Virus record (IMG/VR): IMGVR_UViG_3300046542_000361
Length of the DNA: 64,000 nucleotides
Source: a virus
Lineage: Duplodnaviria > Heunggongvirae > Uroviricota > Caudoviricetes
Reading direction: 5' to 3' (one strand)
Positions 3,389-62,118 of the stretch are shown here, piece after piece (positions within the stretch are counted from its first letter, which is position 1; each line of letters opens with the position of its first letter). Under the pieces are notes generated by a model. It made no database searches. It worked only from the letters and a program-made list of their open reading frames with translations, and was not told where the DNA came from. The translations under genes and the position numbers were made by a program.

Positions 3389-6300
3389 TTAGGCGGTGAC
3401 CGTCACCGTCATCACGGTGTCGACGATATCGAAGCCTCGTTTCTGGCGCACCTTGATGCTGAAGGTCTGGTTGACGGTGAGCACACCTGCTCCGCGGATC
3501 AGATCGCCGTTGCTGTTCATCGCCACGCTCGTGCCGGTGTAGGGATCGTAAGCGCGGGAGGTGTTCAGCAGCGACCTGGTCTCGCCAGTGATCTGATCCG
3601 GGAAGTTGACGACGACGCCGGTCTCGGCGACGGCCAGCGACAGGTTCACCGCGGTCGGCAGGGCCGGCAGGGGCGTTGCAAGCGCACCCGTCCGCAGCAC
3701 CTCGCTCGAGGTGGCATAGCTTGCATCGTAAGCCAGCGCCGTCACCGTCTTCGTAACGCCTGCCTCGGTGAAGGTCAGGTGGATACGATCGACACGGCTG
3801 ACCAGGCAGCCCTGATCGGCGTCAGTGATCGTGTAGCTCGACGCGGTCGCACCATCGATCCATTCACAGAGCCAGCCAAGATGCACACCCGTCCAGTTAG
3901 CCCACTGGACCGCAGGCTTGTGCCGGCGCCACTGGTAGGAGCGGGTGATGACCGCGGTCGGGAAGGCCGTAAGCACAGCCGCAGCGTCGAAGCCGCTGTC
4001 GGGGCCGGACAGAACCGCGCCAGACACACGGCTGCCGGTGATCTGCGCGCGTGCAACGACCTTGGGCGGCTCAGCGATGCTGCCGTTATAGGTGAAGTGG
4101 CTGTCCCAGATGAACGCCTGGATCTCACCACCGGCCGGCAGCGTCGTCAGCGTCCGGTCGAGCGGCTTGGTGACGTTGTGGAAGACGAAGCCACGGAAGC
4201 GGCCGGACGTCGGCCGGTCGACACGCACGCCGTTGGCGCACTTGATGACCGTCTCGTCATGCGCCACGATATCGACGCGGCCGGACTTGGTGCCGGTGTA
4301 GCCCGTCACCGAGATACCGGTGAACGACAGCGCCCGGTTCATGTCATACCAGGAATTGTCGTAGAGCTGATGGTTGTGCGATCCCGGCTGGTTGTCGTAG
4401 CCACCGATGCCGTAGCCGAACGAATAGCTGTTCTTGCGCGAGTAGCGGCTGACGTTACGGCAGAAGACCTGGTTGTCACCCTCGTCGGTGCCATGGACGA
4501 AGTTATTCCCATCCAGGATGTTATCGTGGATCAGGATGTAATCGTGCATGTTGGTGACGAGGCAGCCCTTGCCGGACGAGGTCTTGATCGAGTGCATGTC
4601 CAGGAAGGTGCCTCGCATGAGGTAGCCCTTCTGGTGCGGCCCAGGCGAGCCGTCACTGGCATTGCGGTCGGCACGGGTCTGGATCGTGTCGCCTTCAGCC
4701 GTCATAACCGGACGGAAAAGGCAGTCCTCGATCGTGATCTTATCATTGGTGTCGGAATAGAGCCCGTCGGACATGACCTGGAGCAGCGACACGCGCCGCA
4801 GCGTGATGCCGTTGTTCCTGTAGAAATAGATGCCGGACGCGTTTTCCGACGACCCGACGGGATTGAAGCCCGCCTGGTCGATCACAACGTCCTCAATGAC
4901 CCAGTTGGCGCCTTGACGAGCCATGATGGCGCGGTCACCCGAGGTGATGCGCATCTTGGAGATCTTGACGTTGCTGCGGCCGAGCGAGCCATCGTCGGTG
5001 TAATGGTCGATGGCGTAGCTGACGCTGGTCGAACCAATCGCGGTCAGGTCAGCGCCGAGGCCCTCGTAGTTGCGGTTGCTGCCGACCTTCAGCCGGGTGC
5101 CGAACACGCCGCTCAGAACCGCCGTGGCGCCCGACGGAATGGTGTCGGTGCCGACCAGTGTCTGCTTGGCGAACTCAGCGGTCAGGCCGTCATTGCCGTC
5201 GTTGCCGGTGGCGGGGTTCCAGAAGGCTGCCGCAGGCAGCACGACCTTGCCGGCCGTCGTGATCGAGGTCGAGTTGATGGCGTTGGTCGCGGTGACGCGG
5301 CAGGCGATCGTATGGCCTTCCTGAGCCGAGGTCGGCTTGTAGCTCATCAGCGTGGCGCCGGCGATGTCCACGCCGTTGTCGGTCCACTGAACCGTGTAGC
5401 CGGTCGGCTGGTTGGCCCAGGCGCCGAGATCGATCTGCCAGGTGGTGTTGGAGCGATCGGAAGACGCGACGATGGTCGGCGCCGTGGTATTGGCCGGTGT
5501 GACCGACTGGACAGCTGCTGCCGCAAGCGTGATCTCGTTCGAATAGGCGACGACGTCGTTGTTGCGGTTGGAGAAGGTGCGGGCGAGCCGAACCTTCTTC
5601 GTCGCCATGTCGGCGCGGGTCGTGAACACCGACAGCGTCTTCTGGAGATCCTGCACGTTGCCAATCGGCAGGGTGGCATAGGAGAGACCACCGCGAGCAT
5701 CCCACTGGTAGCTGTTTGCACCAGCGGCCGAGATATTGCGTGCCTGCTGCCGGAAGACCAGCCAGTCGCCATCGAGCCACTCGCCGAAGTCATGCGTGAG
5801 CGTCCAGTGCGAGGTGGCGTTGGTCGTAACGCCGAGCTCGCCGAGCTCGGTGCCGGCCGTCACGCCGACCTTCGGCATCTGCACTTCCTCAATCAGAACA
5901 CCACCACGGTATTTGGCCGCATACATCCTGATGCGGATCGAGGAGTTGGTGTTGAGGTGGCGCATGAACAGGTCGTAGACCTGCGCGCCCTCGTTCCCAC
6001 CGGCCGCGCCGATCTGGGTGGCGATATAGTCGTTCTCAGTAGCGCTCGCGGCGACGGAGAAGCTATAGGTGTTGGTGCCACCGTATGCGGCCGTCGAAAG
6101 CCCGACGCCGTGATGATTGTTGCCATCAGGATAGCCCGTCGGCGCAGCGACGGCGGTAGCGGCTGCCAGATAGCGTGTGAGCGGAGCCTTCAGCGCCGGG
6201 ATTTTCGCCTGGTCGATCTGCCACTCGTCGGACTTGATGATGGCATTTTCGCTTGCAGCGCCCGACGAGGTCACGGTCATGCGGCTACCAGGCTCGGTGC

Positions 6301-7006
6301 TGCCGGCAATCACAGGGCTGGAGAGCAGCACGGACGTCTTGTTGGAGACCGGGCCGATGCCGTTAGCGCTATACCACGGGCCGTCGCCGCCTGCGTTGGT
6401 TGGCTGGACCTGAGCCGTGATCACGTCGCCGTCATCGTCGGGCTGCAGCGTGTAGGAGAGCCCCTCGGCGCCGGGAATGACATAGGCCGTGCCGCGCAGA
6501 TAGCGGTAGCGGTAGCCAGTCGGGCTGCCGTCGAAGTTCGGTGGGGTAAGAGTGATGGTGTCGCCGACCTTGGCCGTCGAGGTAGCCGTGACAGCGTCGA
6601 TCGGCACCGACAGGGCGCTGATCGTCTTCTGCATTGTCGCGGTCAGATAGACCGCGATGCGAACCTCGACCGTATAGGTCTGGCCGCGCGCCAGGATACC
6701 GGTAAAATCATACTCGCCGTTGCCAAGCGCATCGGTCGTCGTTGACCTGCTCACGACGGTTCCATTGGCTGCCGTCACCGTCAGCGTCGCCGGAACGCTC
6801 TCAACAGTGCGGCCGGGGCTGATCAGGCGGAAGCGGACGAACGGCGTGCGGTCGTCCTCTTCGAGGAAGAACACATGCACACCGCCGAGGGCGGAGATCG
6901 AGGCTCGATACTCCACGCCGTTCGGGTCCGCGATGATCATGCTACCGATAGCGATTGCCTCGCCAGGTGCGTCAGGAAGTTGGTCGATGGTCAGGCGATC
7001 AGCCAT
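3389..7006 (-). CDS. tail fiber / tailspike protein with pectin-lyase-like right-handed beta-helix region and Ig-like repeats (about 1206 aa; likely start MADRLTIDQL at 7006)
   Basis: Beta-helix-type repeats (…ITSGDRAIMARQGANWVIEDVVIDQAGFN… NGITLRRVSLLQ…ITIEDCLF…). Thr/Ser/Gly-rich low-complexity stretches. ATG at 7006 sits 2 nt after the stop of the upstream gene. The N-terminal 88 aa of the track ORF is Arg/Ser-rich and unlikely to be coding. Confidence 0.65.
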   Translation of the reverse strand: MADRLTIDQLPDAPGEAIAIGSMIIADPNGVEYRASISALGGVHVFFLEEDDRTPFVRFRLISPGRTVESVPATLTVTAANGTVVSRSTTTDALGNGEYDFTGILARGQTYTVEVRIAVYLTATMQKTISALSVPIDAVTATSTAKVGDTITLTPPNFDGSPTGYRYRYLRGTAYVIPGAEGLSYTLQPDDDGDVITAQVQPTNAGGDGPWYSANGIGPVSNKTSVLLSSPVIAGSTEPGSRMTVTSSGAASENAIIKSDEWQIDQAKIPALKAPLTRYLAAATAVAAPTGYPDGNNHHGVGLSTAAYGGTNTYSFSVAASATENDYIATQIGAAGGNEGAQVYDLFMRHLNTNSSIRIRMYAAKYRGGVLIEEVQMPKVGVTAGTELGELGVTTNATSHWTLTHDFGEWLDGDWLVFRQQARNISAAGANSYQWDARGGLSYATLPIGNVQDLQKTLSVFTTRADMATKKVRLARTFSNRNNDVVAYSNEITLAAAAVQSVTPANTTAPTIVASSDRSNTTWQIDLGAWANQPTGYTVQWTDNGVDIAGATLMSYKPTSAQEGHTIACRVTATNAINSTSITTAGKVVLPAAAFWNPATGNDGNDGLTAEFAKQTLVGTDTIPSGATAVLSGVFGTRLKVGSNRNYEGLGADLTAIGSTSVSYAIDHYTDDGSLGRSNVKISKMRITSGDRAIMARQGANWVIEDVVIDQAGFNPVGSSENASGIYFYRNNGITLRRVSLLQVMSDGLYSDTNDKITIEDCLFRPVMTAEGDTIQTRADRNASDGSPGPHQKGYLMRGTFLDMHSIKTSSGKGCLVTNMHDYILIHDNILDGNNFVHGTDEGDNQVFCRNVSRYSRKNSYSFGYGIGGYDNQPGSHNHQLYDNSWYDMNRALSFTGISVTGYTGTKSGRVDIVAHDETVIKCANGVRVDRPTSGRFRGFVFHNVTKPLDRTLTTLPAGGEIQAFIWDSHFTYNGSIAEPPKVVARAQITGSRVSGAVLSGPDSGFDAAAVLTAFPTAVITRSYQWRRHKPAVQWANWTGVHLGWLCEWIDGATASSYTITDADQGCLVSRVDRIHLTFTEAGVTKTVTALAYDASYATSSEVLRTGALATPLPALPTAVNLSLAVAETGVVVNFPDQITGETRSLLNTSRAYDPYTGTSVAMNSNGDLIRGAGVLTVNQTFSIKVRQKRGFDIVDTVMTVTVTA

Positions 7007-7007
7007 T

Positions 7008-7337
7008 TTACGTCTCCAAAATGTTGATGAGGTCGCCCAGGGAGATCTTGCGAGCGCCGGCGCTCGTTCGAACGAGGAGCAGGTCGTCGCTCCTTGCTTC
7101 AGTGCGGAGGGGAAGGTTGCCGAGCGTCTGATCGCTGGCGTAGTGGATACCGAGATCCTTACCGGCCGTGTCGCCGGTAAGTGCGTAGATCGAACCGTTG
7201 CCAAGGCGCAGAACAGCGGCAGGGCCGGTCTCAGGGTCAGGCTCGACGACAAGAATTGGAGGCGCAGACGCACGCAGGCGATTGCTCAGCCGCGGGCGCT
7301 CACGCAGAGGCAGATTGAGGGGAAGGGCGAGCCTCAT
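7008..7337 (-). CDS. hypothetical protein (tail-associated by position)
   Basis: ORF track. ATGA coupling with 7334..7603. Confidence 0.5.
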   Translation of the reverse strand: MRLALPLNLPLRERPRLSNRLRASAPPILVVEPDPETGPAAVLRLGNGSIYALTGDTAGKDLGIHYASDQTLGNLPLRTEARSDDLLLVRTSAGARKISLGDLINILET

Positions 7338-14786: not shown

Positions 14787-15125
14787 CTAGAACCGCCCGT
14801 AATTGGGATGGCTAGCATATGGGTCGACCGGAATGATCGGGACTTCCGGCACCGGTGGCCGGTAGGGGCTGTTTTCGAACCGCAGCCAGGTCTCATGGAA
14901 ATACTGGGTGATCTGCGCCTCGGTCCCGCCGCTCGGAATCGGACCTTCCGTGGTCGCGCCGGTCAGGCGATCAACGATGCGCCATTTGAAGGCGTGGTGA
15001 ACCTTGACCTCTTCCTCAATCAATTCATCGTTAAGGTCGCCGATTCCTAGCCACTCTTCCTCCTCGATGAGGAGGCCGATGTAGCGATCGCCTTCTCGTA
15101 TCTCGACAACCGTCTCCAGGAGCAT
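14787..15125 (-). CDS. hypothetical acidic protein (about 112 aa from MLLETVV) ending in …DPYASHPNYGRF
   Basis: Its start overlaps the stop of the 15125 gene. Carries the C-terminal GRF-tail motif. Confidence 0.55.
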   Translation of the reverse strand: MLLETVVEIREGDRYIGLLIEEEEWLGIGDLNDELIEEEVKVHHAFKWRIVDRLTGATTEGPIPSGGTEAQITQYFHETWLRFENSPYRPPVPEVPIIPVDPYASHPNYGRF

Positions 15126-15577
15126 CAATAATCCTCGGCGTAGAAGATGGTGAGCACGCGATGCGTCACCTTGGGATCGGCCGGATTCTCCGACAGGTTC
15201 TCCATCGCGAGGTCGTAATAGTCGATCTTCCACATGTAGCTCTGCCCATCGATCTCGAAAGAGCCGAAGTCGTGCTCGCCGTATGGATCGTCCTTCGCAT
15301 CGAACGCGGCGTAGTTCTTTACCTGCTCGACAGCCTTGACGATCTCGTCAGCTTCTGCGTTCGCCAGACCGCCTGCGATAAAGATCTCGCCGCTGGCCTC
15401 AAGCCGGCGCAACTTGTCGTTCAGAGCGCGGACGTCCGACGTCCATTCGTCGAGCTGGGCGACGACCCAGTCGTTGTAGGAGAGATAGCTCGGAAGCAGC
15501 AGCCCGTCGGTCTTGACGAGGGCGCGCCATTTCTCATAGGTGAAGCGGTCGTGCTGGTTAGATGCGGTCCAGGTCAT
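15125..15577 (-). CDS. hypothetical protein
   Basis: RBS GAGGGA. Confidence 0.55.
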   Translation of the reverse strand: MTWTASNQHDRFTYEKWRALVKTDGLLLPSYLSYNDWVVAQLDEWTSDVRALNDKLRRLEASGEIFIAGGLANAEADEIVKAVEQVKNYAAFDAKDDPYGEHDFGSFEIDGQSYMWKIDYYDLAMENLSENPADPKVTHRVLTIFYAEDY

Positions 15578-15578
15578 T

Positions 15579-15875
15579 TCATCCCTCGTCGGTTAGGCAG
15601 CCCTGCTGCCGGCTGTATTCCATGAACTTCTTGACCTTCTCGCGCTTGCGGATGACCATACTGACGTCGCGGTAAAGCTCGATCTCGGCCTCCTCTGCCA
15701 GCAACTCCTGGGTCGCCTGAAGGTCGTTCCATTCGTGGTTCAGCCGTTCGGTGTTGTTGAAGGTCTGACCCGGCTGCACCTCATCGGCGCCGAACGTCAA
15801 AATCTTGGTGGCGCGCTGAGCGACCTCGAGGCATTCCTCGATGAACTTGGTGAGCAGGTATTCGCGTTTGTTCAT
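15579..15875 (-). CDS. hypothetical protein (from MNKREYLL)
   Basis: ATGA overlap at 15872-15875. Confidence 0.5.
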   Translation of the reverse strand: MNKREYLLTKFIEECLEVAQRATKILTFGADEVQPGQTFNNTERLNHEWNDLQATQELLAEEAEIELYRDVSMVIRKREKVKKFMEYSRQQGCLTDEG

Positions 15876-16243
15876 CGGACTTTCCCCTCCTTGACTAGAC
15901 GGATGGCGATCGCCTGCGTGGCGCGCTGGAGCCACTCCTCGCGCTCGTCAGGACTGAAGCAGCCGTCGCCCTCCGGATAACCCTCGAAAATCGTGTCGCC
16001 ACCGCAGTCCGGATAATCGACGCGGAAGAAGCCATGTCGCAGGCGCAGATAGCCAACCGGCTCCTCGCCGAGGAAGGCGTCATACTGCTCGGGGCAGGCG
16101 CCACAGGTCTGCTCAAGGCGGATCTCGACCTCTTTGATCTCGACGCCGGTCGGCATGCCAGCGTCCGTGTGCGTCTCGCAGGCGTGAAACTCACGGCCGG
16201 CGAAGAAGCAGCCGCAGGCGACGCTGATGACCGAGACGCTCAT
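15872..16243 (-). CDS. Cys-rich protein (multiple CxxC-like pairs)
   Basis: RBS TAGGAGCG. Confidence 0.55.
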   Translation of the reverse strand: MSVSVISVACGCFFAGREFHACETHTDAGMPTGVEIKEVEIRLEQTCGACPEQYDAFLGEEPVGYLRLRHGFFRVDYPDCGGDTIFEGYPEGDGCFSPDEREEWLQRATQAIAIRLVKEGKVR

Positions 16244-16455
16244 GCTGCGCTCCTACCTTCGACATGCTGACGCGCCAGCGCGTCGAGACCTTCGCCTTCG
16301 GAGATCGAAACGACGCCGTAATCCTCGCAGCCGCAGGTCAGGCGCCGGTTCGGCTTCACGATGGAGAACGGCACGGTGTTAACCACGGTGACGTGGTTGC
16401 AGCCGGTGCATTTCAGGTAGCTGCGAAAGGTCGGTGCTTCACGCTTCTTGGACAT
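16240..16455 (-). CDS. zinc-ribbon small protein (CTGC…CGCEDYG)
   Basis: RBS AGGAGAT. Confidence 0.55.
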   Translation of the reverse strand: MSKKREAPTFRSYLKCTGCNHVTVVNTVPFSIVKPNRRLTCGCEDYGVVSISEGEGLDALARQHVEGRSAA

Positions 16456-16999
16456 TGGCGATCTCCTGCTTCTGTTGTTCGATCTGATCCATCGTCAGCG
16501 ACCAGAGCACCTTGTCGCCGCCGCGCAGCACGGCCATCGCGTCTTCCTTTTCCTTCAGGAAAAGCGGGGCGAAGCTCGGCGCCAGCACCGCGACGTTCTT
16601 GGTGTTGTCCTTGATATCGGCGATCTTGACCGTCTGAACGGCCCACGGGGCGAGCGCCAGGCGCTCAACGTTGATCTGGTGCCGGTGCTTACGATTGCCG
16701 GCCGCCTGGCCGATGTTGGTAAGGTAGTAGAGCCCCTCGGCGATATCTTCGTCGAACTGAGCACGGATCACCTCAAGCGTGACGCCGGTGTCTTCGACCG
16801 TGTCGTGCAGCCAGGCCATGCAGACCTGCTGCCAGCTGTGATCGGGCAAAGCCTGAACAATCTCAGCAACGGCACGCGGATGAACGATGTAGGGCTCGTT
16901 GGTGAACTTGCGACGCTGGTCTATGGCGTAATGCGCCGCAGTCGCGAAAGCCTCGGCGCGCGCTATCATTTGCTCGCCGTATGCAGAGTAGTAAGCCAT
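16439..16999 (-). CDS. HD-domain hydrolase of the RelA/SpoT hydrolase type (small alarmone hydrolase-like; start MAYYSAYGEQ at 16999)
   Basis: HPRAVAEIV…WLHDTVEDTGVTLEVIRAQF matches the SpoT / Mesh1 (p)ppGpp hydrolase HD signature (HPL.VA…LLHD.VEDT). RBS AGGAG. The motif lies upstream at 17013-17037. Confidence 0.65.
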   Translation of the reverse strand: MAYYSAYGEQMIARAEAFATAAHYAIDQRRKFTNEPYIVHPRAVAEIVQALPDHSWQQVCMAWLHDTVEDTGVTLEVIRAQFDEDIAEGLYYLTNIGQAAGNRKHRHQINVERLALAPWAVQTVKIADIKDNTKNVAVLAPSFAPLFLKEKEDAMAVLRGGDKVLWSLTMDQIEQQKQEIANVQEA

Positions 17000-17072
17000 G
17001 CTGATCTCCTGATAATCAATCAATGTTTATTTATCGCACAGCGCGAGCAGGATTGCGGTAGGATCGCTGCGG

Positions 17073-19278: not shown

Positions 19279-19304
19279 AAGCGGCGCATGGGATGCGCCG
19301 CCTT
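19279..19304 (-). terminator. hairpin GCGGCGCAT-ggg-ATGCGCCGC after the rtcB operon
   Basis: Read directly. U-rich tail on the minus strand. Confidence 0.5.
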
Positions 19305-19333: not shown

Positions 19334-20791
19334 TTACGAGGCAATCGCCTCCGGCTTCTTTTTCTTCGCGCGCTGCCACTTCATTTCGCCGGCCATGATC
19401 GAGCCTCTGGGCTGGATGCGATCGACAACGTCGGCCAGGCCGTGCTTTGTGATCTGCGCCTGCACCTGGTCGGCGCTCTTGTAGGCCGAGGGAAACTCCG
19501 ACGGGTCGGCAAAGCCGGTGTAGAAGCGAACGTCGAGCCCGGCCGTCTCCTTGATCATCTGGGTCGACACGTCGCGCGGGCTCAAGCCGCGGTCGTCTGA
19601 GCCGTATTCAGCGGCCAGGCGCTTCATATGTGCCGTGCGTGACAGATTGCGGCCGGCGCCGTGCGGTGCAAAGCCGAGTGCGTCCTCGTTGTTGGCGTGC
19701 TTGGTGACGAGGATCGGCTGGGCCATGTTGAGCGGGATCAGCGTCAGGCCGCGGTCGTCAGCTGCGAAGCCGTCATAGGACGGTGTTGCGCCCTTGCCGT
19801 GGTAGTAGAGCCCGTCCGCGCGCCGGAAGACGAAGTTATGCTCGTTCCAGACCTGGTCGATGATCGCATTGCCGAGGTAGTGCGCGATCAGCTGGTGAAT
19901 GCCGAAGTGATTGTATTTCGTCCACAGCCGGACGATCTGCATGGCATCCCAGTAAGCCTTGCCGTCTTCGCTGTTAGCGTCGATCCAGGCATTGTGCAGC
20001 GGGATTCGCGGCGCGACGATGCGCGTGTGCTTCTCTGCAACACGCTTGCCGCGCTTGTAGAGCTGCGCGCCGAGGCCGCGCGAGCCGTGATGCGTGACGA
20101 TCGCCATCTGCTTCGTGCTCTCGAGCTCGCCAACGAAGAGGAAGTGATTGCCGTCGCCCTGGGTCATGAAGTGCTCGACGGCGATATCCTCGAGGCCGCG
20201 CAGGAACGGATTGCTGTCGAACTTGGCGACGATCTGACCGAGGATCGGCGTGAACGCCGACGGAATATCCTTGTCGTTCGTCCGAGCGCCTGGTCCGAAG
20301 TGCGTTGCCTTCATCGCGGCCGTCATCACCTTGCCGACGTCATCGTCGCGCTTGAAGACGCTCATGGCGACGGAGCAGCAGATATCGGCCGAGTGGAAGC
20401 CCGGATGGATCGCGTCTTTGGTCGCCACGACGCCACCGACAGGGATGGTGCCCATCTGGCTGCCGGAAGGGCAGGCGTCAGGCATAACCGCGCCCTTGAC
20501 GATCGTCGGCGTGCGCAGCAGCGCATCCATGTGCGCAATAACCGACGCAGTGTTGAGGATCTCGTCCTCGGTCTCCGGCTCGATGAAGCGGGCGAACGGA
20601 ATGGAGTTCGTGCGCAGCGGCACGCCCTCGGTCACGGCCGGCATGACGCGCAGCGTGAAGAGGTGGTCGATGATCTGCCGATCGCTTTTACCTTCGGCGC
20701 GCATCGCGTTGGCGATGGGCAGAGCCTCTTGAAACCAGGCGCCGGGCTCGAGGCCCCACGAAACGAGGGTCTTTCCAGAAATATTGCTCAC
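19334..20791 (-). CDS. rtcB: RtcB-family RNA 3'-phosphate / 5'-OH ligase
   Basis: GDGNHF, HHGSRGLG and C-terminal HGAGR motifs are diagnostic of RtcB. 485 aa. GTG start with RBS AAAGGAAAG. Confidence 0.85.
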   Translation of the reverse strand: MSNISGKTLVSWGLEPGAWFQEALPIANAMRAEGKSDRQIIDHLFTLRVMPAVTEGVPLRTNSIPFARFIEPETEDEILNTASVIAHMDALLRTPTIVKGAVMPDACPSGSQMGTIPVGGVVATKDAIHPGFHSADICCSVAMSVFKRDDDVGKVMTAAMKATHFGPGARTNDKDIPSAFTPILGQIVAKFDSNPFLRGLEDIAVEHFMTQGDGNHFLFVGELESTKQMAIVTHHGSRGLGAQLYKRGKRVAEKHTRIVAPRIPLHNAWIDANSEDGKAYWDAMQIVRLWTKYNHFGIHQLIAHYLGNAIIDQVWNEHNFVFRRADGLYYHGKGATPSYDGFAADDRGLTLIPLNMAQPILVTKHANNEDALGFAPHGAGRNLSRTAHMKRLAAEYGSDDRGLSPRDVSTQMIKETAGLDVRFYTGFADPSEFPSAYKSADQVQAQITKHGLADVVDRIQPRGSIMAGEMKWQRAKKKKPEAIAS

Positions 20792-26153: not shown

Positions 26154-27716
26154 TCAGCCGTTGGGCTTCAGGCCATGCTTGTCGAAGAGCTTCTTCAGGG
26201 TCTTGCGGCAGATATGCAGCTCAGCCTCGATCGCGCGGTTCGACTTGCCTTCGCCGTGCAGCTTGAGTGCGAGCGCCTTCTTGTCAGGCTTGTGACCGGT
26301 TGCCTGGTTGAGCATGTCTTCGCCGGCCTTCATGACATCAGCCATCTTCGGCGCAGGCTTCTTAACCTCGGCTCTCTTCGCGGGAACCGCCGAGGCAGCG
26401 TTGATCGCAGCGCTCATGTCGCCGCTCATCGCAGCCTCATTGACGTCGACCTTCTTGCCGTCGACGTGCAGATCGCCAGCAATCATCTGGACGTGGCTCT
26501 TGGTGATCTCGCCTTCGGGCGCAGGTGCATCCGGGGCGGCCGCCTTGACGGCAACGCGCAGCTCTTGGATCGTCACGACCGGCTTCTTCTCCCCGTGATC
26601 GAGTGCCCTGGCCTCGCCGGACGTGCCAGCGACGATATCCGGTGCCTGCTCGATCAACTGCGTGATCGTCACGTCACCGCCCTTTGCAGCGCCGATGCGA
26701 ACCTCTTCGAGCACCGGAACGTGATTGCCGGTGATCGCGTCAGCGAGCAGCTTGGACGCAGCGTTGTCCTTCGTCATCGGCAGGTTCGAACGCAGCATGT
26801 CGTGGACGTTCTTCGGCACTTCGCCGACAATGTGGTAGGTCGCGACACGCATCTTGTCTGGCTCGCCCATTGGCACAGCGATGACGTCCTCGGGTGCGAT
26901 CTTCACCAGCATGATCGTATCGCCGCTAAAGTCCTTGAGGTAGCCGCGGCGCGCGATGTGCAGGCCGGAGGAGCATTGCGTGCGCCGGCTCGGATCGACC
27001 AGTTTCGGATCCATGCAGACGCGCGAGCCGACGCGCTGGACGACTTTTCCCGAGTGCTTGTCGACGACCACCTTCTTGCCGTCGACAATTTTGGTTGTCA
27101 GCACCTTATAGGCAATGATCGAGCCGTCCTTTGCGATCGGCAGGTCGCCTTTGCGCATGAAGTTGAGCAGCTCCTGAACCGAGTGCCCCTTCTTATCGAT
27201 GACAGACGCGCAGCGCCGCATGAAGTTTTCGACGCCTTCGGTATCGCCGGCCTCGAGCGCGTGCTCCATGTGCGTGCTGAGAGCTTCGACGCCGGGCACC
27301 TTCTTATCGCCGATAATCGCGACAACGACTTCCTCCTCGGGACCAGCCGTCGGCACCCCGTATGTGTGGTTGCCGTAGCTGCCGTCATTGACGGTCGCGG
27401 TCTGGGTGAAGGCCTCGACATTCTTGGAAGCTTCGTCTTCGGCAGCCGGCTTGAACCAGCTCCGGACAGAGGCGACTTTCTCACGCACAAAGCGGATCAG
27501 GCCGCCCGAGCGCTCTTCGATATGGGCGTGAACGTCAAAGGTGTCGAGGTCGATCTCAACCTTCTGGCGCTTTGCGATGAACGGCGTCACCTTGTCCATG
27601 ATCGCCTTCGTCTTCCAGCCCTCGAGCGCCAGGTTCGTTTCCTTACCGTCTGCGTGATAGAGGGTGATGCCTTTGGCGCCTGCGATAGCGCCGACGATGA
27701 TTACAGTCCTGCTCAT
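26154..27716 (-). CDS. rIIB-like protein (putative); 520 aa with C-terminal HTH (…GKSNRAIEAELHICRKTLKKLF…)
   Basis: Translationally coupled (ATGA) to the upstream GHKL ATPase, as in rIIA-rIIB pairs. No catalytic motifs recognised. Confidence 0.35.
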   Translation of the reverse strand: MSRTVIIVGAIAGAKGITLYHADGKETNLALEGWKTKAIMDKVTPFIAKRQKVEIDLDTFDVHAHIEERSGGLIRFVREKVASVRSWFKPAAEDEASKNVEAFTQTATVNDGSYGNHTYGVPTAGPEEEVVVAIIGDKKVPGVEALSTHMEHALEAGDTEGVENFMRRCASVIDKKGHSVQELLNFMRKGDLPIAKDGSIIAYKVLTTKIVDGKKVVVDKHSGKVVQRVGSRVCMDPKLVDPSRRTQCSSGLHIARRGYLKDFSGDTIMLVKIAPEDVIAVPMGEPDKMRVATYHIVGEVPKNVHDMLRSNLPMTKDNAASKLLADAITGNHVPVLEEVRIGAAKGGDVTITQLIEQAPDIVAGTSGEARALDHGEKKPVVTIQELRVAVKAAAPDAPAPEGEITKSHVQMIAGDLHVDGKKVDVNEAAMSGDMSAAINAASAVPAKRAEVKKPAPKMADVMKAGEDMLNQATGHKPDKKALALKLHGEGKSNRAIEAELHICRKTLKKLFDKHGLKPNG

Positions 27717-30091
27717 GCTGCCTCCTTGATGGTGTTGGCTGCGTTGTCGTTGCGAGAAGTCAATTTTGATTTACTACCGGAGCGTTGCAAAAAGCGGATG
27801 AATGCCAGCAACTGCTCCTTCTTCGGTTCGGGGAGAGATTTGCCCTCTTCGATCCATGCGGAGTCGACCAAGACGCCAAGATAGCCGAGCCTCTTGGCGC
27901 AATCCTTTTGGCTGACGAGCAGGTGCTTGAACGTTTCGAGCGCGTTCCGACCAATGAGAGAAATCAGACCGACAGGATGCTCGACACCTTGCCATTCAAG
28001 ACCCTGGCTTCCAGTCGGGAATGTTTCGATGATCTTGATCAGCCGCTTGGCGAGCTTCCAGTTTTCGCCGACCTTGACGCGATCAGGGAAGATGGCCTTG
28101 GCCACATCGATGTGCATTTTCGCCAGATCGACCGCAGTTGCGCCGACAGGCTGGTCAAATCTATCCCTTCGTTCGACGAAGAGCTTGCGGTCGACCATGT
28201 AGCCATATTGGACCTCGCGGCTCTTCACCATCTTCGCAAGGCGTGCGCTCAGCTCCTCGATGATGTTGACGGCGCCGGCTTTGCGCAGCTTCTCTTCCTG
28301 GGCCTTTGTCGTAACGATCGCCACGCCCGGATAGAGATCCTTCAGCGTATAGCGGGCGCTGTAATCGTCGATGCCGACGAGCATCTTGTTGTCGTGCGTT
28401 CTGGCGCGCATGAAGAACTTCGGATTTTGGAGCTCTGGCGCCAGAACGTTTCGATCTTCCATGTAGTTGTCGAGATTGTGGTATTTCTCGTCGTCCGTGT
28501 TCTTGACACGCACGACCTTGGGCTTCTCCCATTCGAAGTCGTAGCTCTCGACCTCGAACTTGAAGGTCTCAGCCATCTTCTCGATGCGCTGGAGCAGATC
28601 CCTTGACGGCTTGGCGCCGACGACAAGGCCGACGAAGAATGACTCGTCGCGATCGGTCGGATCATCCTTCATGCCGACGATCATCGAGGTCAACTCGCGC
28701 CGGTTGGGCGCAACGAAGAGGATTGGCTCGACACTGCCGCTGTTGTTCAAGCCCTCGCGAATGGACGTCATACGCTTGGCACCGCCGAACTCCTCGTTGT
28801 TATCGTAGATCATGGCGCCGTCGAGCAGCTTGAGCTTGGCTGCAAGCTTCACGAAACGCCGGAAGTCGTAGCGCTGCTGCGCGAGGTCGAATGTCAGGCC
28901 CTCCCGGAAGGCTCTTCGGAGCGGCGCGCGCATATCAAAGTGCTTCTTGCGCAGACCGGCAAACAGGTATTTTCGGCGCAGGTTAAGCGGCAGGCGATCA
29001 GGCTTGCACTTGACCGCGTAGGCGGCAATCTCTTGCGGATCAATGACGATCAAGCCTTCGAGCCGCGGCGGATAGACGGAAAGAATGTTTTTCTCGTTCG
29101 GACTGGTTAGGTCATGCTTTTCGGCAAGGAGCGTGACGAACTTTTTGCCGGCGCCCGGAATTGCGGCCTCGATAACGTTGGTCGCGCGTTTCAGCAGCTT
29201 GAGAACCGTCGCCATCGTTAACTCGGTGTAGTTGAGGGATTCACGGCTCGGCGTGACGCCGATGCTGTTTGGAGGAGCGATGAGCACCAGCTTGTAGCCT
29301 TCGCCGATCAGGCTTGCTGCCTTCTTTGCGGCCTCATAGACATGCGTGTCGGTCGTCGTCACCGGATAGAGCACTGTGCCATAGAGCAGATAGACGGCTG
29401 ACTCGTGCATTCCCGAGTGAGCAATTGTGCAGAAACCCTGCTTGCGCGCCGGCGTGTAATCGACGCGCCGCAATTCTTCGCCGTTCAGCTTGACGAGCAT
29501 ACCGCCCTGATAGGCGACGCTGCGAATGATCTGGGACAGCTCATATCGATCGCTCTTGTCGCGCAGCGGGATCGTGACGGTGACGCCGGTCTCGTCGGTC
29601 GGAAGATTTTCGACCATCGGTCGGATCTCGGGGCGACCTTCAGTCGACGCGCCGCCTTTGCTGAGTGCATAGACGTTGCGCAGGCCGGCGTTTCGGCTAT
29701 CGACCGTGAAGTGGTCTGTGTAGGCGAAGGGCGACTTGGAACCGAGGCCAAAACCACCTGTCTGATTTGCGTCCTTGACCTTCGTCGATGCGCCATAGAC
29801 GCAGTAGATGTGGTCGATCAAGCGGTCGGGAATACCAGGGCCGAAATCCTTGAAGATGATCTCGTCGTCCGTCAGGCTGATTTCAACGTGCTTATCGGTG
29901 CAGCCGCCCATGATATGCGCGTCCCAGCCGTTGCAGATGACTTCGCGGATCATGGCGCGCTTGCCGTCGCGATAGATCGCCGAGGACAGCATTCCATAGA
30001 ACTCAACCGAATCCGCTATGCCGAACGATCGAGCCACACCACCGCCAATAACGGCGTGCGTGTCGACCTCTTTAACGTGCGATACCTGCAT
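27713..30091 (-). CDS. GHKL / Hsp90-like ATPase, rIIA-like (putative)
   Basis: Bergerat-fold motifs: N-box REVICNGWDAH, G1 KDFGPGIP, G2 TGGFGLGSKSPFAYTDHFTVDS. 792 aa. RBS AAAGGAAG. Confidence 0.55.
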   Translation of the reverse strand: MQVSHVKEVDTHAVIGGGVARSFGIADSVEFYGMLSSAIYRDGKRAMIREVICNGWDAHIMGGCTDKHVEISLTDDEIIFKDFGPGIPDRLIDHIYCVYGASTKVKDANQTGGFGLGSKSPFAYTDHFTVDSRNAGLRNVYALSKGGASTEGRPEIRPMVENLPTDETGVTVTIPLRDKSDRYELSQIIRSVAYQGGMLVKLNGEELRRVDYTPARKQGFCTIAHSGMHESAVYLLYGTVLYPVTTTDTHVYEAAKKAASLIGEGYKLVLIAPPNSIGVTPSRESLNYTELTMATVLKLLKRATNVIEAAIPGAGKKFVTLLAEKHDLTSPNEKNILSVYPPRLEGLIVIDPQEIAAYAVKCKPDRLPLNLRRKYLFAGLRKKHFDMRAPLRRAFREGLTFDLAQQRYDFRRFVKLAAKLKLLDGAMIYDNNEEFGGAKRMTSIREGLNNSGSVEPILFVAPNRRELTSMIVGMKDDPTDRDESFFVGLVVGAKPSRDLLQRIEKMAETFKFEVESYDFEWEKPKVVRVKNTDDEKYHNLDNYMEDRNVLAPELQNPKFFMRARTHDNKMLVGIDDYSARYTLKDLYPGVAIVTTKAQEEKLRKAGAVNIIEELSARLAKMVKSREVQYGYMVDRKLFVERRDRFDQPVGATAVDLAKMHIDVAKAIFPDRVKVGENWKLAKRLIKIIETFPTGSQGLEWQGVEHPVGLISLIGRNALETFKHLLVSQKDCAKRLGYLGVLVDSAWIEEGKSLPEPKKEQLLAFIRFLQRSGSKSKLTSRNDNAANTIKEAA

Positions 30092-56919: not shown

Positions 56920-59442
56920 TCATTTCATGAGGATCTTCTTCAGTTCGCCCATCACGGCGCGCGGCAGGTCGTCGACCGACTGCAGGACAATGTGGTTGTC
57001 GTAGAAGCGCGCGACGGCGTCGGACTCGATGCCGATACCGACGAGATCGTAGCCCATGTTGGTCAGACGCTCGACCATGTGCTTCAGGTGCGCGTCGTCA
57101 TTTCTGGCGCCGGCAGGAAAGCCGTCGGACAGGACGATGATGACCTTGCGCTTCTCCTTGCGCCGCGCCAGGCGCATTGCTGCGTATTCGAGGGACTCGC
57201 CGTCGATATTGCCGCCCATATAAGGCTGATGCTTGCGCTGGTAAGCGAAGCGCTTCTTGACGTCGGCGTTAAGCCGCTCGTTGAAATCTTTGAAGATCGG
57301 CATGTAGATCGGCACGACGCGCGAGAAGGCAACGTTGGATTTGTTCGTCTCGGTCTGAAGGTCGTTGTTGAACTGCCTGATCCTATCTTCCGTCATGACG
57401 CTGCCTTGGCCCCACATCTGCGCGGTCGTAAAGCCCATGCATTCGGAGGGGATATTGCAGCGCTCGAGCACCGAGGCGAGCGCGTAAGAGGCCGACAGCG
57501 CCGTTGCCATTGGTCGCCCCTGCATCGAGCCGGAGCAGTCCGACAGCAGCGACACAGCCGTGTCTTTCGCGCGGATCTCTTCACGGCGCGAGAACACGCG
57601 CGAATCGCCGGCCGTCAGCCGATGCAGACCGGCGCTGTTCAAGCGGCCAGAGCGTTGACCGGCGACATTGAAGACGCGCGCCTGGGCGGCCATCATGCGC
57701 TCGATATCCTTCTGCATCACGCCAGTCAGCGCGCGGGTCTGCTCCTCGAGCTCGACGATATAGCGGCTTTTGAAATCTTCCGGCACCTCGAGCGGCTTGA
57801 TCACGTCGTATTCACGGGTGAAGATCGAATAATCCGAGGCCCTGCAGGCCGAGATCGCTTCCTTGACGATGATCTTGACCAGCGCCGACGAGATATCCTT
57901 TTCGTCGAGCGCGTCATCATCCATTGCGGCAAAGGGGTTCTGGTTCGGATCGTAGCCGATGGAAGCGACGTCGATCGCCGGCTCCTCATCTTCACTGGCC
58001 GAGCCGTCGTTTGCGTCTTCATCGTCGCCGGCGTCCTCGACAGCGACATTGCTCAGAGGCTCGCCAGACTCCTCATCGCCGTCTTCACCTTCTTCGGATT
58101 CACCATCGGGATCAGAGCCTCCAGCGTCGCTTTCGCTCTCGTCACCCTCAGCGTCCACATCTTCGTCGGCATCGTCAGCGGGCTCCCCGGAGCTGTTCTG
58201 CTCGGCGTCCTTGCCTTCATCAACCTCAGAAGCATCCGATGCTTCGTCGCCGTCAGCAGCAGAGCCGTCACCCCCTTCCTCGCTTCCGCCATCAGCATCA
58301 TCGGGCGCGCTGCCGGAACCATCTTGATCATCGGCATCGTCAGCGTCGTCCTCTTCGGCCGAGCCGGCGCCTTTGCTTTCCTCGGGCTCATTGCCAGCGT
58401 CGGCATCGTCCTTGTCGCCGGAACCGTCACCTGCGTCTTCGTCGGCCGTTTGATCACCATCCTGATCGTCGTCGCCGTCGTCTGCGCTTCCAGCGCCAGG
58501 TTCCTTGTCGCTTTCCTCATCGTCGGCTTTTTCTTCGCCTTCGCCGGAACCTTCGTTCTCACCGTCGCCGGCATCGTCTTCCTTCTCCTCTTCGTCGCTT
58601 TCGCCTTCGCCGCCCGACGCTTTGTCGTTGTCTTCGGTGTGCTCGCGCTCACCGTCGCCTTCACCGTCGCCGGTCTGCTGTTCGTCGGAATGATCCTTGT
58701 CGTCTTCGCCTTCGGACGGCTCCTGGTCGTCGGAGCCTTCGCCCTGGTCCTGATCGTCTTGCTCTTCAGGCTCGGGCGGCTGCGGCGGGGCGGGCGGCGG
58801 TGGCGGGTAGAGAATGGCTTCGACCTCGACCGCAATGTCGTAGGTCTGCTCGGTCGTCTGGAGCAACGGCATCTTGTCTTGCGACGCCTTTGAGAAGCGC
58901 TGCATGAATGGCTTGACCAGCTCGTGCTCCCAGTAATTGTTGTCGTCCATGAATTCCTGGAATTCGACGTGGCCGGCAAGCGCGCGCATCATGACGACGA
59001 TCAGATAGCCGAACTCTTCTTCCTTCGAGTGCGCCTTTGCGATCGCGGCCGCGGTGACGTTGCGCAGGAAGTATTCACGCAGCTTGGAAATGTTGCGCTT
59101 CGAGCCGGGGAACTCATTGCTCATCAGCCGCTCGATCATCGTATCTTCGATGATATTGTGCAGATTGTGCAGGCGCTTCGACTTGTCGCGCGCCTTGAAC
59201 AGGAAGTCGGTGAAGAGGACATGCGCGACTTCATGGTCGATGAAGCCCTGGATCGCGAAGACAAACTCCGGCTCGGCATTGTCGGGCAGGAGAGGAATGT
59301 TGACGCGCCAGGGCAGACCGGTGACGGGGTGCGGTTGAACATAGGCTTGCGTGCCCATTTGCGTCACGGTCAGGCCTTTGCCAGCAAGCATCGGCACGAT
59401 CTTCTTGATCGCTTCGCGCAGGATCACGATGTCTTTGTTCAT
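56920..59442 (-). CDS. CobT-like vWA-domain protein with a ~250-aa poly-acidic low-complexity linker and an N-terminal HExxH (HEVAH) motif
   Basis: C-terminal vWA MIDAS LLSDCSGSMQG. Extreme D/E/G/S-rich repeat region. 840 aa. Confidence 0.7.
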   Translation of the reverse strand: MNKDIVILREAIKKIVPMLAGKGLTVTQMGTQAYVQPHPVTGLPWRVNIPLLPDNAEPEFVFAIQGFIDHEVAHVLFTDFLFKARDKSKRLHNLHNIIEDTMIERLMSNEFPGSKRNISKLREYFLRNVTAAAIAKAHSKEEEFGYLIVVMMRALAGHVEFQEFMDDNNYWEHELVKPFMQRFSKASQDKMPLLQTTEQTYDIAVEVEAILYPPPPPAPPQPPEPEEQDDQDQGEGSDDQEPSEGEDDKDHSDEQQTGDGEGDGEREHTEDNDKASGGEGESDEEEKEDDAGDGENEGSGEGEEKADDEESDKEPGAGSADDGDDDQDGDQTADEDAGDGSGDKDDADAGNEPEESKGAGSAEEDDADDADDQDGSGSAPDDADGGSEEGGDGSAADGDEASDASEVDEGKDAEQNSSGEPADDADEDVDAEGDESESDAGGSDPDGESEEGEDGDEESGEPLSNVAVEDAGDDEDANDGSASEDEEPAIDVASIGYDPNQNPFAAMDDDALDEKDISSALVKIIVKEAISACRASDYSIFTREYDVIKPLEVPEDFKSRYIVELEEQTRALTGVMQKDIERMMAAQARVFNVAGQRSGRLNSAGLHRLTAGDSRVFSRREEIRAKDTAVSLLSDCSGSMQGRPMATALSASYALASVLERCNIPSECMGFTTAQMWGQGSVMTEDRIRQFNNDLQTETNKSNVAFSRVVPIYMPIFKDFNERLNADVKKRFAYQRKHQPYMGGNIDGESLEYAAMRLARRKEKRKVIIVLSDGFPAGARNDDAHLKHMVERLTNMGYDLVGIGIESDAVARFYDNHIVLQSVDDLPRAVMGELKKILMK

Positions 59443-61011: not shown

Positions 61012-62118
61012 ATGGGAGCGCAGTCATCCGGCTGGCGTGGATTAAGTCCGACACTTTCGGTCGGCCAAGATCTCGACAGCGCCGAAAAGCAAGACCTCTT
61101 CGACACGGCCAGAATGGCAGCTCGAGTCCTTGGGTTGCCGCCGACGGCGCGGTTCGTCCTCGACCAGCTCTGCGGCGTTTATAACGGCGAACCGATCGAA
61201 GGTCGAATCCTTGTCTGGCCGTCAAACGAGTTCATCGGCGAGCGCACTGGCATTCCGGAGCGGTCCATCAGGTTCGCGCTCGCCCGTCTGATCGAGGAGG
61301 GCGTGATCATCTCCAAGGATTCGCCGAACGGCAAGCGGTTTGCGCAGCGCTCGCCATCCGGCCAGATCATCCGTGCCTTCGGTTTCGACCTCTCCCCTCT
61401 CCTTGCGCGCCGGCCGGAGTTTGTCGCCAGGCTCGCGGCGCTCAAGGAATTGGAGCGTGAGCGGAGCGTTGCCTTCGACGAGCTGGTCATTCACCGGCGT
61501 TCGGCCCAGGAAGCTCTCAGGACGCTTGCAGAGGTTTACCCGAGCGTCGACATAGCTGATCTGACGGCGCGCGCCCTGGAGCTCATGCGCGTCACACCGC
61601 GCAGGTCCGGTGCGGGATCAGCCGACCCTTTCCGCGGGCAGTGGCAAGCACTCAGAGAAGAGGCAGAATCCAGATATTATACCGCCTCTGCCGGCAATAA
61701 CTGCCGTCACAAAGACAGCAACAAATATGCCCCTGACCAGTCTTGTGACAACGGCTCTGAAGATGTGCAGGAGGCGCCGGCGCAGCGGACGGATCTGCGC
61801 GACCTGAAGATGGCTTGCCTTGATGCGATGGAATTCATGGGTGAGATCCGGCACGACCTCGAGCTTGTCGCGGCTGCCGGGCGAATGCGGGGCTCGTTCG
61901 GCGTGTCAGTGTCGGCCTGGGAGGAGGCCAGGCGCGAAATCGGCCCGGTGCCGGCTGCCGCGACCCTGGTGTGGGTCATCCAGATGCAGGCGCGGCCAGC
62001 TGCCGGCGCCGAGCAGATCAAGAATTTCGGTGGTTACTTCCGGGCGATGTGCCGGTTGGTCCGCGACGGCCGCGTCAACCTCGATGAAGAGATCCAAAAG
62101 CTCAGGCGACGACAATAA
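61012..62118 (+). CDS. replication initiator-like protein with winged HTH (RepC / RP-C-like, putative)
   Basis: wHTH SNEFIGERTGIPERSIRFALARLIEEGVI. 368 aa. RBS AAGGGAAA. One of only three plus-strand genes. Confidence 0.45.
   Translation: MGAQSSGWRGLSPTLSVGQDLDSAEKQDLFDTARMAARVLGLPPTARFVLDQLCGVYNGEPIEGRILVWPSNEFIGERTGIPERSIRFALARLIEEGVIISKDSPNGKRFAQRSPSGQIIRAFGFDLSPLLARRPEFVARLAALKELERERSVAFDELVIHRRSAQEALRTLAEVYPSVDIADLTARALELMRVTPRRSGAGSADPFRGQWQALREEAESRYYTASAGNNCRHKDSNKYAPDQSCDNGSEDVQEAPAQRTDLRDLKMACLDAMEFMGEIRHDLELVAAAGRMRGSFGVSVSAWEEARREIGPVPAAATLVWVIQMQARPAAGAEQIKNFGGYFRAMCRLVRDGRVNLDEEIQKLRRRQ

Follow-up and report, generated by a model that had tools for sequence, protein, structure and literature searches.

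The window analysed here is a DNA stretch of 64,000 nucleotides (nt) from a virus of the class Caudoviricetes (IMG/VR virus record IMGVR_UViG_3300046542_000361). On its minus strand it carries a gene for a protein of 186 amino acids (aa) which, as judged from sequence comparisons and a predicted structure, is almost certainly a hydrolase from the superfamily of RelA/SpoT homologs (RSH). It encompasses an HD domain only, without synthetase, TGS or ACT domain, and thus is a small alarmone hydrolase (SAH). The gene, its ribosome-binding site and the three motifs of the predicted active site are located as follows:

16439..16999, minus strand: coding sequence of the SAH, 186 aa, PaSpo-like (most likely) hydrolase-only RSH protein, ATG start and TGA stop
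17006..17010, minus strand: AGGAG, Shine-Dalgarno-like, 6 nt 5' of the SAH ATG, read from the sequence
16877..16915, minus strand: motif RRKFTNEPYIVHP, residues 29-41, with R30/K31 as predicted phosphate-binding pair and H40 as predicted first metal ligand
16787..16810, minus strand: motif LHDTVEDT, residues 64-71, with H65-D66 as predicted metal ligands and E69-D70 as predicted catalytic acid pair
16604..16627, minus strand: motif KIADIKDN, residues 125-132, with D128 as predicted last metal ligand and the conserved N132

The open reading frame (ORF) of 186 aa at this place had been called in a first-pass annotation of the sequence, and this call is correct. A longer version, starting with a TTG at 17023 and comprising 194 aa, is given in the ORF list and by the Joint Genome Institute (JGI) and is without a ribosome-binding site. 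The ATG at 16999 is preferred because it is preceded by the AGGAG and because the starts of the orthologs coincide with it (gp139 of Rhizobium phage RHEph10 with 185 aa, P0002 with 183 aa), so that 186 aa is the correct length. The gene is real. Compared pairwise with four orthologs, the ratio of nonsynonymous to synonymous substitution rates (dN/dS) is 0.25-0.31 for the three closer ones and 0.42 for the most divergent one, and contigs from JGI metagenomes encode a protein identical to the SAH of the window. With 74% nucleotide and 71% amino-acid identity to the RHEph10 ortholog, the gene is more diverged than the surrounding region, which is ~84% identical at the DNA level.

Family, fold and active site of the hydrolase

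The sole Pfam match of the SAH is HD_4 (PF13328; E = 2.2e-10, 40.9 bits as against a gathering threshold of 27.2), the RelA/SpoT-type hydrolase domain. The NCBIfam model TIGR00691 (spoT_relA) matches over the first 127 positions (E = 3e-18); its score of 65 bits lies under the full-length cut-off of 499, as is expected for a hydrolase-only protein. Within PHROGs, the SAH falls into phrog_990, "metal-dependent phosphohydrolase" (E = 3e-38). In the PDB, significant matches to the sequence came from RSH hydrolases without exception, i.e., from Rel of M. tuberculosis, RelSeq, B. subtilis Rel, SpoT and T. thermophilus Rel, and from the stand-alone SAHs, namely the Leptospira SAH, Lmo0812, Mesh1 of fly and human, the P. 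aeruginosa SAH and Aph1. An alignment of 67 homologs served as family profile and as input for AlphaFold2. With this profile, 23 of 23 PDB matches at E<=10 are RSH hydrolases (best match RelSeq, 1vj7, E = 4e-25). The AlphaFold2 model consists of one helical domain with eleven helices (predicted local distance difference test, pLDDT, 96.3; predicted template modelling score, pTM, 0.92), and the top 50 of 50 Foldseek matches in the PDB are again RSH hydrolases, with template modelling (TM) scores of 0.79-0.81 for Mesh1, 0.78-0.79 for the P. aeruginosa SAH and 0.73-0.81 for the Leptospira SAH and RelH. The first-pass annotation had assigned the protein to the SpoT/Mesh1-type (p)ppGpp hydrolases on account of HD signature peptides, which are present (HPRAVAEIV at residues 40-48, WLHDTVEDTGVTLEVI at residues 63-78), and had asked for a structural comparison with Mesh1 and SAHs; its assignment is borne out by the HD_4 match, the PDB matches, the model and the intact catalytic residues. 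A better fit to a dNTPase or nucleotidase family, which it had named as the finding that would speak against the assignment, was seen neither with the profile nor with the fold.

Residues invariant in the 67 homologs include R30, Y37, H40, P41, H65, D66, E69, D70, K125, D128 and N132. In the HMMER alignment to RelSeq, for which chain numbering and native numbering are the same, R30/K31 correspond to R44/K45, H40 to H53, H65-D66 to H77-D78, E69-D70 to E81-D82, D128 to D144 and N132 to N148. In the BLASTP alignment to human MESH1 (query sequence confirmed to be identical to PDB 3nr1), the equivalent residues are R24/K25, H35, H61-D62, E65-D66, D122 and N126. We take the aligned residues to be those that bind Mn2+ and those that catalyse the 3'-pyrophosphohydrolase reaction, as described by Hogg et al. 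2004 and Sun et al. 2010. The RSH-specific ED pair, the phosphate-binding R(K) residue and the C-terminal Asn are all present, and the sequence gives no sign of an inactivated HD domain.

Homologs of the SAH were found by tblastn (E<=1e-3) in 276 of 50,697 phage records, including phages of Pseudomonas, Erwinia, Caulobacter, Serratia, Rhizobium and Salmonella, and at least 474 relatives were confirmed in IMG/VR. Behind rhizobial and several Escherichia phages, SSU5_099 (YP_006906731) of the Salmonella phage SSU5, known as PaSpo, is among the best tblastn matches (42% identity over 155 aa, 109 bits, E = 1e-34). By sequence, SSU5 PaSpo is the closest tested relative of the SAH; any structurally solved SAH reaches at most 36 bits. 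Placed by these pairwise scores, the protein most likely belongs to the PaSpo subfamily, whose hosts are Proteobacteria and Acidobacteria (PMC3153485), which fits the element in the window. It was shown that SSU5 PaSpo, like the SAH PbcSpo of PVP-SE1, neutralised five of five validated toxic small alarmone synthetases (toxSAS) in E. coli, i.e., CapRel, PhRel, PhRel2, FaRel and FaRel2 (Jimmy et al. 2020, PMC7229694, Table 1), and it was proposed that such hydrolases let incoming phages bypass alarmone-based defence (PMC7229694). According to the same group, the modification that FaRel2 places on tRNA is taken off again by PaSpo (PMC11245113), and they employ PaSpo routinely to allow the expression of CapRel-SJ46 (PMC9712102). 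The related enzymes MESH1 and ATfaRel restored the aminoacylation of pyrophosphorylated tRNA in vitro (bioRxiv 10.1101/2021.04.30.441581). By analogy with its 42%-identical relative, a role of the window protein in neutralising toxSAS and other alarmone-based defences, as suggested at first sight of the sequence, gains support (PMC7229694).

From the ORF, its family, fold and catalytic residues, the lack of a synthetase partner and the kinship to the tested PaSpo, we infer that the protein is probably an active stand-alone SAH, acting as Mn2+-dependent 3'-pyrophosphohydrolase that cancels the arrest of growth or translation imposed by RSH synthetases. In the single all-helical HD domain, one Mn2+ would be bound via H40, H65, D66 and D128, and E69/D70 would activate a water molecule for cleavage of the 3'-pyrophosphate ester at the ribose. 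As substrates, ppGpp/pppGpp and (p)ppApp are to be expected and probably, as was reported for related SAHs, the 3'-pyrophosphorylated CCA end of tRNA; pyrophosphorylated tRNA may be the most relevant one. The arrest undone in this way would be the one exerted by the abortive-infection toxins of the toxSAS/CapRel type, by (p)ppApp toxins or by the stringent response of the host, and the element would be able to keep replicating.

Stand-alone status and the carrier element

The ORFs adjoining the SAH gene code for 71 and 82 aa. A RelA_SpoT synthetase domain (Pfam) was not found in the five genes on each side, and a regular-expression search in all six frames for the ExQxRT synthetase motif gave no match within the 64-kb window, which was the range of this search, ~53 kb of the element lying outside. 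Gene neighbourhoods were compared in 82 related loci, i.e., 80 of the at least 474 IMG/VR relatives (39-78% identity) plus RHEph10 and SSU5, with the ORFs within 4 kb being clustered; a conserved synthetase-like neighbour was not found across these loci either. As no synthetase partner is nearby, the SAH is stand-alone, as the first-pass annotation had called it. A classification as type IV toxSAS antitoxin, for which a toxic small alarmone synthetase next door in a conserved operon is characteristic, was considered and rejected, as these searches of the ten neighbour genes, the 64-kb window and the 82 loci gave no synthetase. Further features of the window, starting with those close to the SAH gene, are:

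16240..16455, minus strand: 71-aa ORF with CxxC...CxC, zinc-ribbon-like, its ATG overlapping the SAH stop by 17 nt
15579..15875, minus strand: MazG-like NTP pyrophosphohydrolase, 98 aa, also by the JGI gene call (phrog_4856, 2.9e-16), 0.6 kb downstream of the SAH
15125-15577, minus strand: DUF3768 gene
19279-19303, minus strand: terminator-like hairpin after rtcB, 11-bp and GC-rich with a T-rich tail
19334..20791, minus strand: RtcB RNA ligase (Pfam RtcB 5.7e-28, phrog_1075 2e-105), 2.3 kb upstream of the SAH
26154-30091, minus strand: rIIB-rIIA pair (phrog_2886, phrog_2979)
56920-59442, minus strand: 840-aa protein with CobT-like C-terminal region (phrog_1576; weaker match to the cobaltochelatase CobT phrog)
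61012-62118, plus strand: RepC plasmid replication gene (PF03428 2.7e-38, plus RP-C_C)
3389-7273, minus strand: 1294-aa ORF, the largest gene in the window (phrog_36166 only, function unknown, E = 0)

The carrier is a RepC-type phage-plasmid of rhizobia related to RHEph10 rather than a plain lytic phage. This follows from the RepC gene, from the kinship to RHEph10, which together with pLM21S1 is described as archetype of a plasmid-like prophage group that has RepC and partition systems (PMC4447125; PMC7969092), and from SAH relatives on replicons of 115-119 kb in assemblies of Pararhizobium, Rhizobium and Ensifer, of which those of the first two genera were deposited as plasmids. SSU5 is also a phage-plasmid (PMC7969092). 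A megablast search against the PLSDB plasmids returned nothing but short matches; relatives are present among these plasmids, with too much divergence at the DNA level. Given RepC and the group of plasmid-like prophages, the SAH could have a function in the plasmid state as well, while the element is being carried. The cobTS module described for RHEph10 and pLM21S1 (PMC4447125) has its counterpart in the 840-aa CobT-like protein of the window. A scan of the 64-kb window with ARAGORN gave no tRNA gene; for the related pLM21S1, three were reported, and in several other phages with an SAH, tRNA genes adjoin the SAH gene.

The SAH gene is embedded in an extended block on the minus strand, made up of small ORFs and of genes for replication and nucleotide metabolism. 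Recognisable genes of this run are those for ribonucleotide reductase (RNR), ThyX-like, SbcC, metallophosphoesterase, RecA/UvsX-like, 5'-3' exonuclease, gp32-like, DNA polymerase, CobT-like and DNA ligase proteins. The block is the non-structural arm of the genome, and "early region" is a plausible designation as regards the time at which the SAH would be expressed. The combination of rIIB-rIIA and T4-like replication genes (gp32-like, UvsX/RecA-like, DNA polymerase) with a RepC replicon is unusual. RtcB is 93% identical to its RHEph10 ortholog, and the hairpin behind it is the sole terminator-like site between rtcB and the SAH block. The 71-aa ORF, for which neither a Pfam nor a PHROG match was obtained, is probably co-translated with the SAH and was kept, among the 82 loci, only in RHEph10 and one IMG/VR locus (L003). 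The MazG-like ORF constitutes a second candidate for a nucleotide-signal-degrading enzyme in this gene block; tblastn gave no match to it at the corresponding place of RHEph10. None of the window neighbours that were considered (the 71-aa, 123-aa and 82/99-aa ORFs, DUF3768 and MazG-like) is a family-wide partner of the SAH, as all of them are confined to the RHEph10 lineage.

Linkage to RNA-repair genes and possible roles

In the 82 loci, several gene families recur near the SAH:

metallophosphoesterase (phrog_547): 48 of 82 loci
dual-specificity/protein tyrosine phosphatase (DSP/PTP)-like phosphatase (Pfam Tc-R-P / PTP-SAK): 47 of 82 loci
AAA_33 P-loop kinase, also matching polynucleotide kinase phrog_505: 44 of 82 loci
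T4 Rnl1-like RNA ligase (phrog_562): 21 of 82 loci, in most of them following directly after the SAH
DUF2828/DUF7788 "RNA-binding protein" (phrog_850): 15 of 82 loci

In ~50 of the 80 IMG/VR relatives, the SAH gene lies 0.5-2 kb from genes for the metallophosphoesterase, the DSP/PTP-like phosphatase and the AAA_33 polynucleotide-kinase-like protein, and this linkage to RNA-repair genes persists despite a shuffled gene order. RtcB was found at a distance of at most 6 kb from the SAH in the lineage of the window and in three distant loci. Examples of loci with neighbours of the RNA-repair type are:

L080:3087-6361 and L028:2406-4883: IMG/VR loci (IMG/VR range L006-L082)
L088:3995-5900: Bradyrhizobium phage BDU-MI-1, with an overlap between the SAH gene and the start codon of rtcB
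L085: Acidovorax phage ACP17, with the SAH gene followed by a metallophosphoesterase gene and Rnl1 2 kb upstream
XacN1 and DLP_6: tRNA genes or the DUF2828 RNA-binding protein near the SAH

The linkage is patchy, the ~50 linked loci representing only ~5 of 23 SAH clusters at 65% identity, i.e., a minority of lineages, and in five of nine sampled cultured phages the surroundings of the SAH showed no gene for RNA repair, for an RNA-binding protein or for tRNA. In a second IMG/VR scan, seeded with the BDU-MI-1 SAH, RtcB was nearby in one of 62 loci, and adjacency of SAH and RtcB as a general rule was rejected on this basis. All these figures are raw counts. In the literature that was searched, no report of a linkage of SAHs to RNA-repair genes was found, and the observation may be new. 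It gives a tentative hint, more likely to fail than to hold, that damaged tRNA and the repair of its 3'-end are the main in vivo substrate and task of the SAH family.

Several points weigh against the assignment as a counter-defence alarmone hydrolase. The sequence cannot discriminate between ppGpp, ppApp, pyrophosphorylated tRNA, NADPH and 3'-phosphoadenosine-5'-phosphosulfate (PAPS) as substrates. Human MESH1 was reassigned as NADPH phosphatase, and a structure of the MESH1-PAPS complex (9chy) is among the fold matches. A literature search for toxSAS in Rhizobium found nothing relevant, a scan for promoters and terminators in the region 14.5-21.5 kb gave counts at background, with the hairpin after rtcB as the only site of note, and a PADLOC scan of the SAH protein gave no match, PADLOC having no model for SAHs; the latter result is uninformative because the library covers defence rather than anti-defence proteins.

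Among the rival explanations, the linkage bears on the possibility that the SAH mainly serves the repair of tRNA 3'-ends, removing the 3'-pyrophosphate or phosphate placed by translation-targeting toxSAS on the CCA end as part of an RNA-damage-reversal toolkit together with RtcB, alarmone hydrolysis being a side activity. The position of rtcB 2.3 kb upstream on the same strand, the overlap of both genes in BDU-MI-1, the phosphatase and kinase neighbours in ~50 of 80 loci with the Rnl1-like ligase directly after the SAH in 21, and the neighbours in ACP17 (metallophosphoesterase and Rnl1) and in XacN1/DLP_6 (tRNA genes or DUF2828 protein) are in line with such a role, and SAHs were reported to reverse tRNA pyrophosphorylation (10.1101/2021.04.30.441581; PMC11245113). 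However, the chemistry of RtcB needs no 3'-pyrophosphatase, in the window, the terminator-like hairpin stands between rtcB and the SAH block, and the linkage is limited to the minority of clusters named above, with RtcB nearby in one of the 62 BDU-MI-1-seeded loci, five of nine cultured phages having none of these genes nearby and all counts being raw. This role is regarded as doubtful. Less probable still, and in our view unlikely, is a function in lysogenic conversion or maintenance of the plasmid-prophage, in which the SAH would trim the (p)ppGpp of the host or protect the carrier from (p)ppApp toxins of competitors. The SAH of P. aeruginosa reportedly protects against the (p)ppApp toxin Tas1, as is said of work by Steinchen and colleagues in 2021. 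The RepC gene, the relatives of RHEph10 existing as plasmids of 115-119 kb in Pararhizobium, Rhizobium and Sinorhizobium (PMC4447125; PMC7969092) and the phage-plasmid nature of SSU5, the carrier of the closest tested homolog (PMC7969092), speak for it. Against it stands the position of the SAH inside a unidirectional block with rIIA/B, RNR, DNA polymerase, ligase and RtcB, which is typical of lytic-cycle genes and not of a moron that has a promoter and a terminator to itself; moreover, jumbo and T4-like phages that are strictly lytic commonly carry relatives.

It is improbable that the SAH acts on a non-alarmone substrate such as NADPH, PAPS or a 3'-phosphorylated nucleotide, as was proposed for metazoan MESH1: Mesh1/MESH1 complexes with NADPH and PAPS (5vxa, 9chy) are top fold matches and RSH hydrolases are known as promiscuous (PMC9765508; 10.1101/2021.04.30.441581), but bacterial Rel with 52 bits and SSU5 PaSpo with 109 bits score above MESH1 with 27-30 bits, and the gene context holds no pointer to NADPH metabolism. 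SAH antitoxins of type IV do exist, such as ATfaRel of C. marina (PMC7229694), and the SAH might in analogy protect the element from a toxSAS module of its own; with neither a synthetase domain in the ten neighbour genes, nor an ExQxRT motif in the 64-kb window, nor a conserved synthetase neighbour in the 82 loci, this is very improbable. An HD dNTPase or 5'-nucleotidase of the SAMHD1/Dgt/YfbR type for the control of nucleotide pools would suit the HD superfamily and a region rich in nucleotide metabolism (RNR, ThyX-like, MazG-like). No such enzyme is found among the 23 PDB profile matches or the top 50 fold matches, however, and the SAH has the ED pair specific to RSH enzymes as well as the R-K motif; profile, fold and motif evidence effectively refute this identity.

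If the counter-defence hydrolase is active as predicted, it would be a general antidote of a rhizobial phage-plasmid to the stringent response, to (p)ppApp toxins and to abortive infection of the CapRel type. If, on the other hand, the role in tRNA repair were true, phage "alarmone hydrolases" would belong to the heal-and-seal machinery together with the ligase, kinase-like and phosphatase genes, and the SAH and RtcB of the window would be two arms of one anti-tRNA-toxin strategy against defence of the CapRel/FaRel2 type. The SAH itself is unsurprising to a specialist; follow-up is merited by its setting on a phage-plasmid and by the linkage to RNA-repair genes, and the recurrent linkage is the sole lead that could alter the view of these enzymes.

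Comparison with known systems

The SAH of the window and SSU5 PaSpo are alike as stand-alone HD_4 proteins on phage-plasmids of ~100 kb without an adjacent synthetase, and they have the motifs RRK..PYI.HP, LHD.VEDT, GNR and K.ADL.DN in common. They differ in length (186 aa versus 213 aa), with C-terminal tails that cannot be aligned, in the host, which is Rhizobium for the element in the window and Salmonella for SSU5, and in their flanking genes, which are unrelated. Metazoan Mesh1/MESH1 (3nqw, 3nr1, 5vxa) is the best fold match (TM ~0.8, root-mean-square deviation 2.2-2.7 A, ~178 columns), and in the sequence alignment of MESH1 and the SAH (31% identity over 130 aa) the metal-binding and catalytic residues are all aligned. 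MESH1 differs in being eukaryotic, in having NADPH as proposed physiological substrate and in its sequence similarity, which is lower than that of bacterial Rel or PaSpo. The hydrolase domains of the long RSH enzymes (RelSeq 1vj7, M. tuberculosis Rel 5xnx, SpoT 7qpr) are the best sequence and profile matches and have the same catalytic motifs. In contrast to these enzymes, the SAH possesses no synthetase, TGS and ACT domains; it thus lacks an allosteric switch, and its activity is presumably constitutive.

Stand-alone hydrolases that serve as defence against alarmone toxins are also known from P. aeruginosa (SAH, 6yvc) and from Bacteroides ((p)ppApp hydrolase 7smg, Aph1 family). Both have the fold in common with the SAH of the window and are distant in sequence. 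The P. aeruginosa SAH shows a TM score of 0.78 and 25 bits in sequence, and 7smg a TM score of 0.59-0.61 and 18 bits (E = 0.021), and membership of the SAH in the Aph1 family was rejected, 7smg being among the weakest profile matches.

Hydrolase-only orthologs of ~160-210 aa are misnamed in KY940711 (BDU-MI-1), AP018399 (XacN1), MT778838 (V1VFA-S) and NC_055841 (OLIVR5). The names given to SAH orthologs are "metal-dependent phosphohydrolase", "GTP pyrophosphokinase" and "bifunctional (p)ppGpp synthetase/hydrolase", of which those of the synthetase type are misleading because the proteins are without a synthetase domain; the assignment made here corrects them.

HD-alarmone phosphodiesterases (PDEases) were listed as counter-defence of jumbo phages (Iyer et al. 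2021, PMC7824862), and homologs from jumbo phages, i.e., phiKZ-like, Erwinia and Dickeya phages, are among the tblastn matches of the SAH. These enzymes and the SAH of the window have in common the predicted role as counter-measure to alarmone-based immunity; they differ in the carrier, which here is a rhizobial RepC phage-plasmid of 115-120 kb and in Iyer et al. 2021 a jumbo phage. Stand-alone phage SAHs acting in counter-defence are thus a kind that is already known and was experimentally tested in 2020, of which the window protein and its rhizobial orthologs are uncharacterised members. The principle was demonstrated in 2020 with SAHs of Salmonella phages and had been predicted for jumbo phages by 2021, so that what the present case adds is mainly a host range that includes Rhizobium phage-plasmids.

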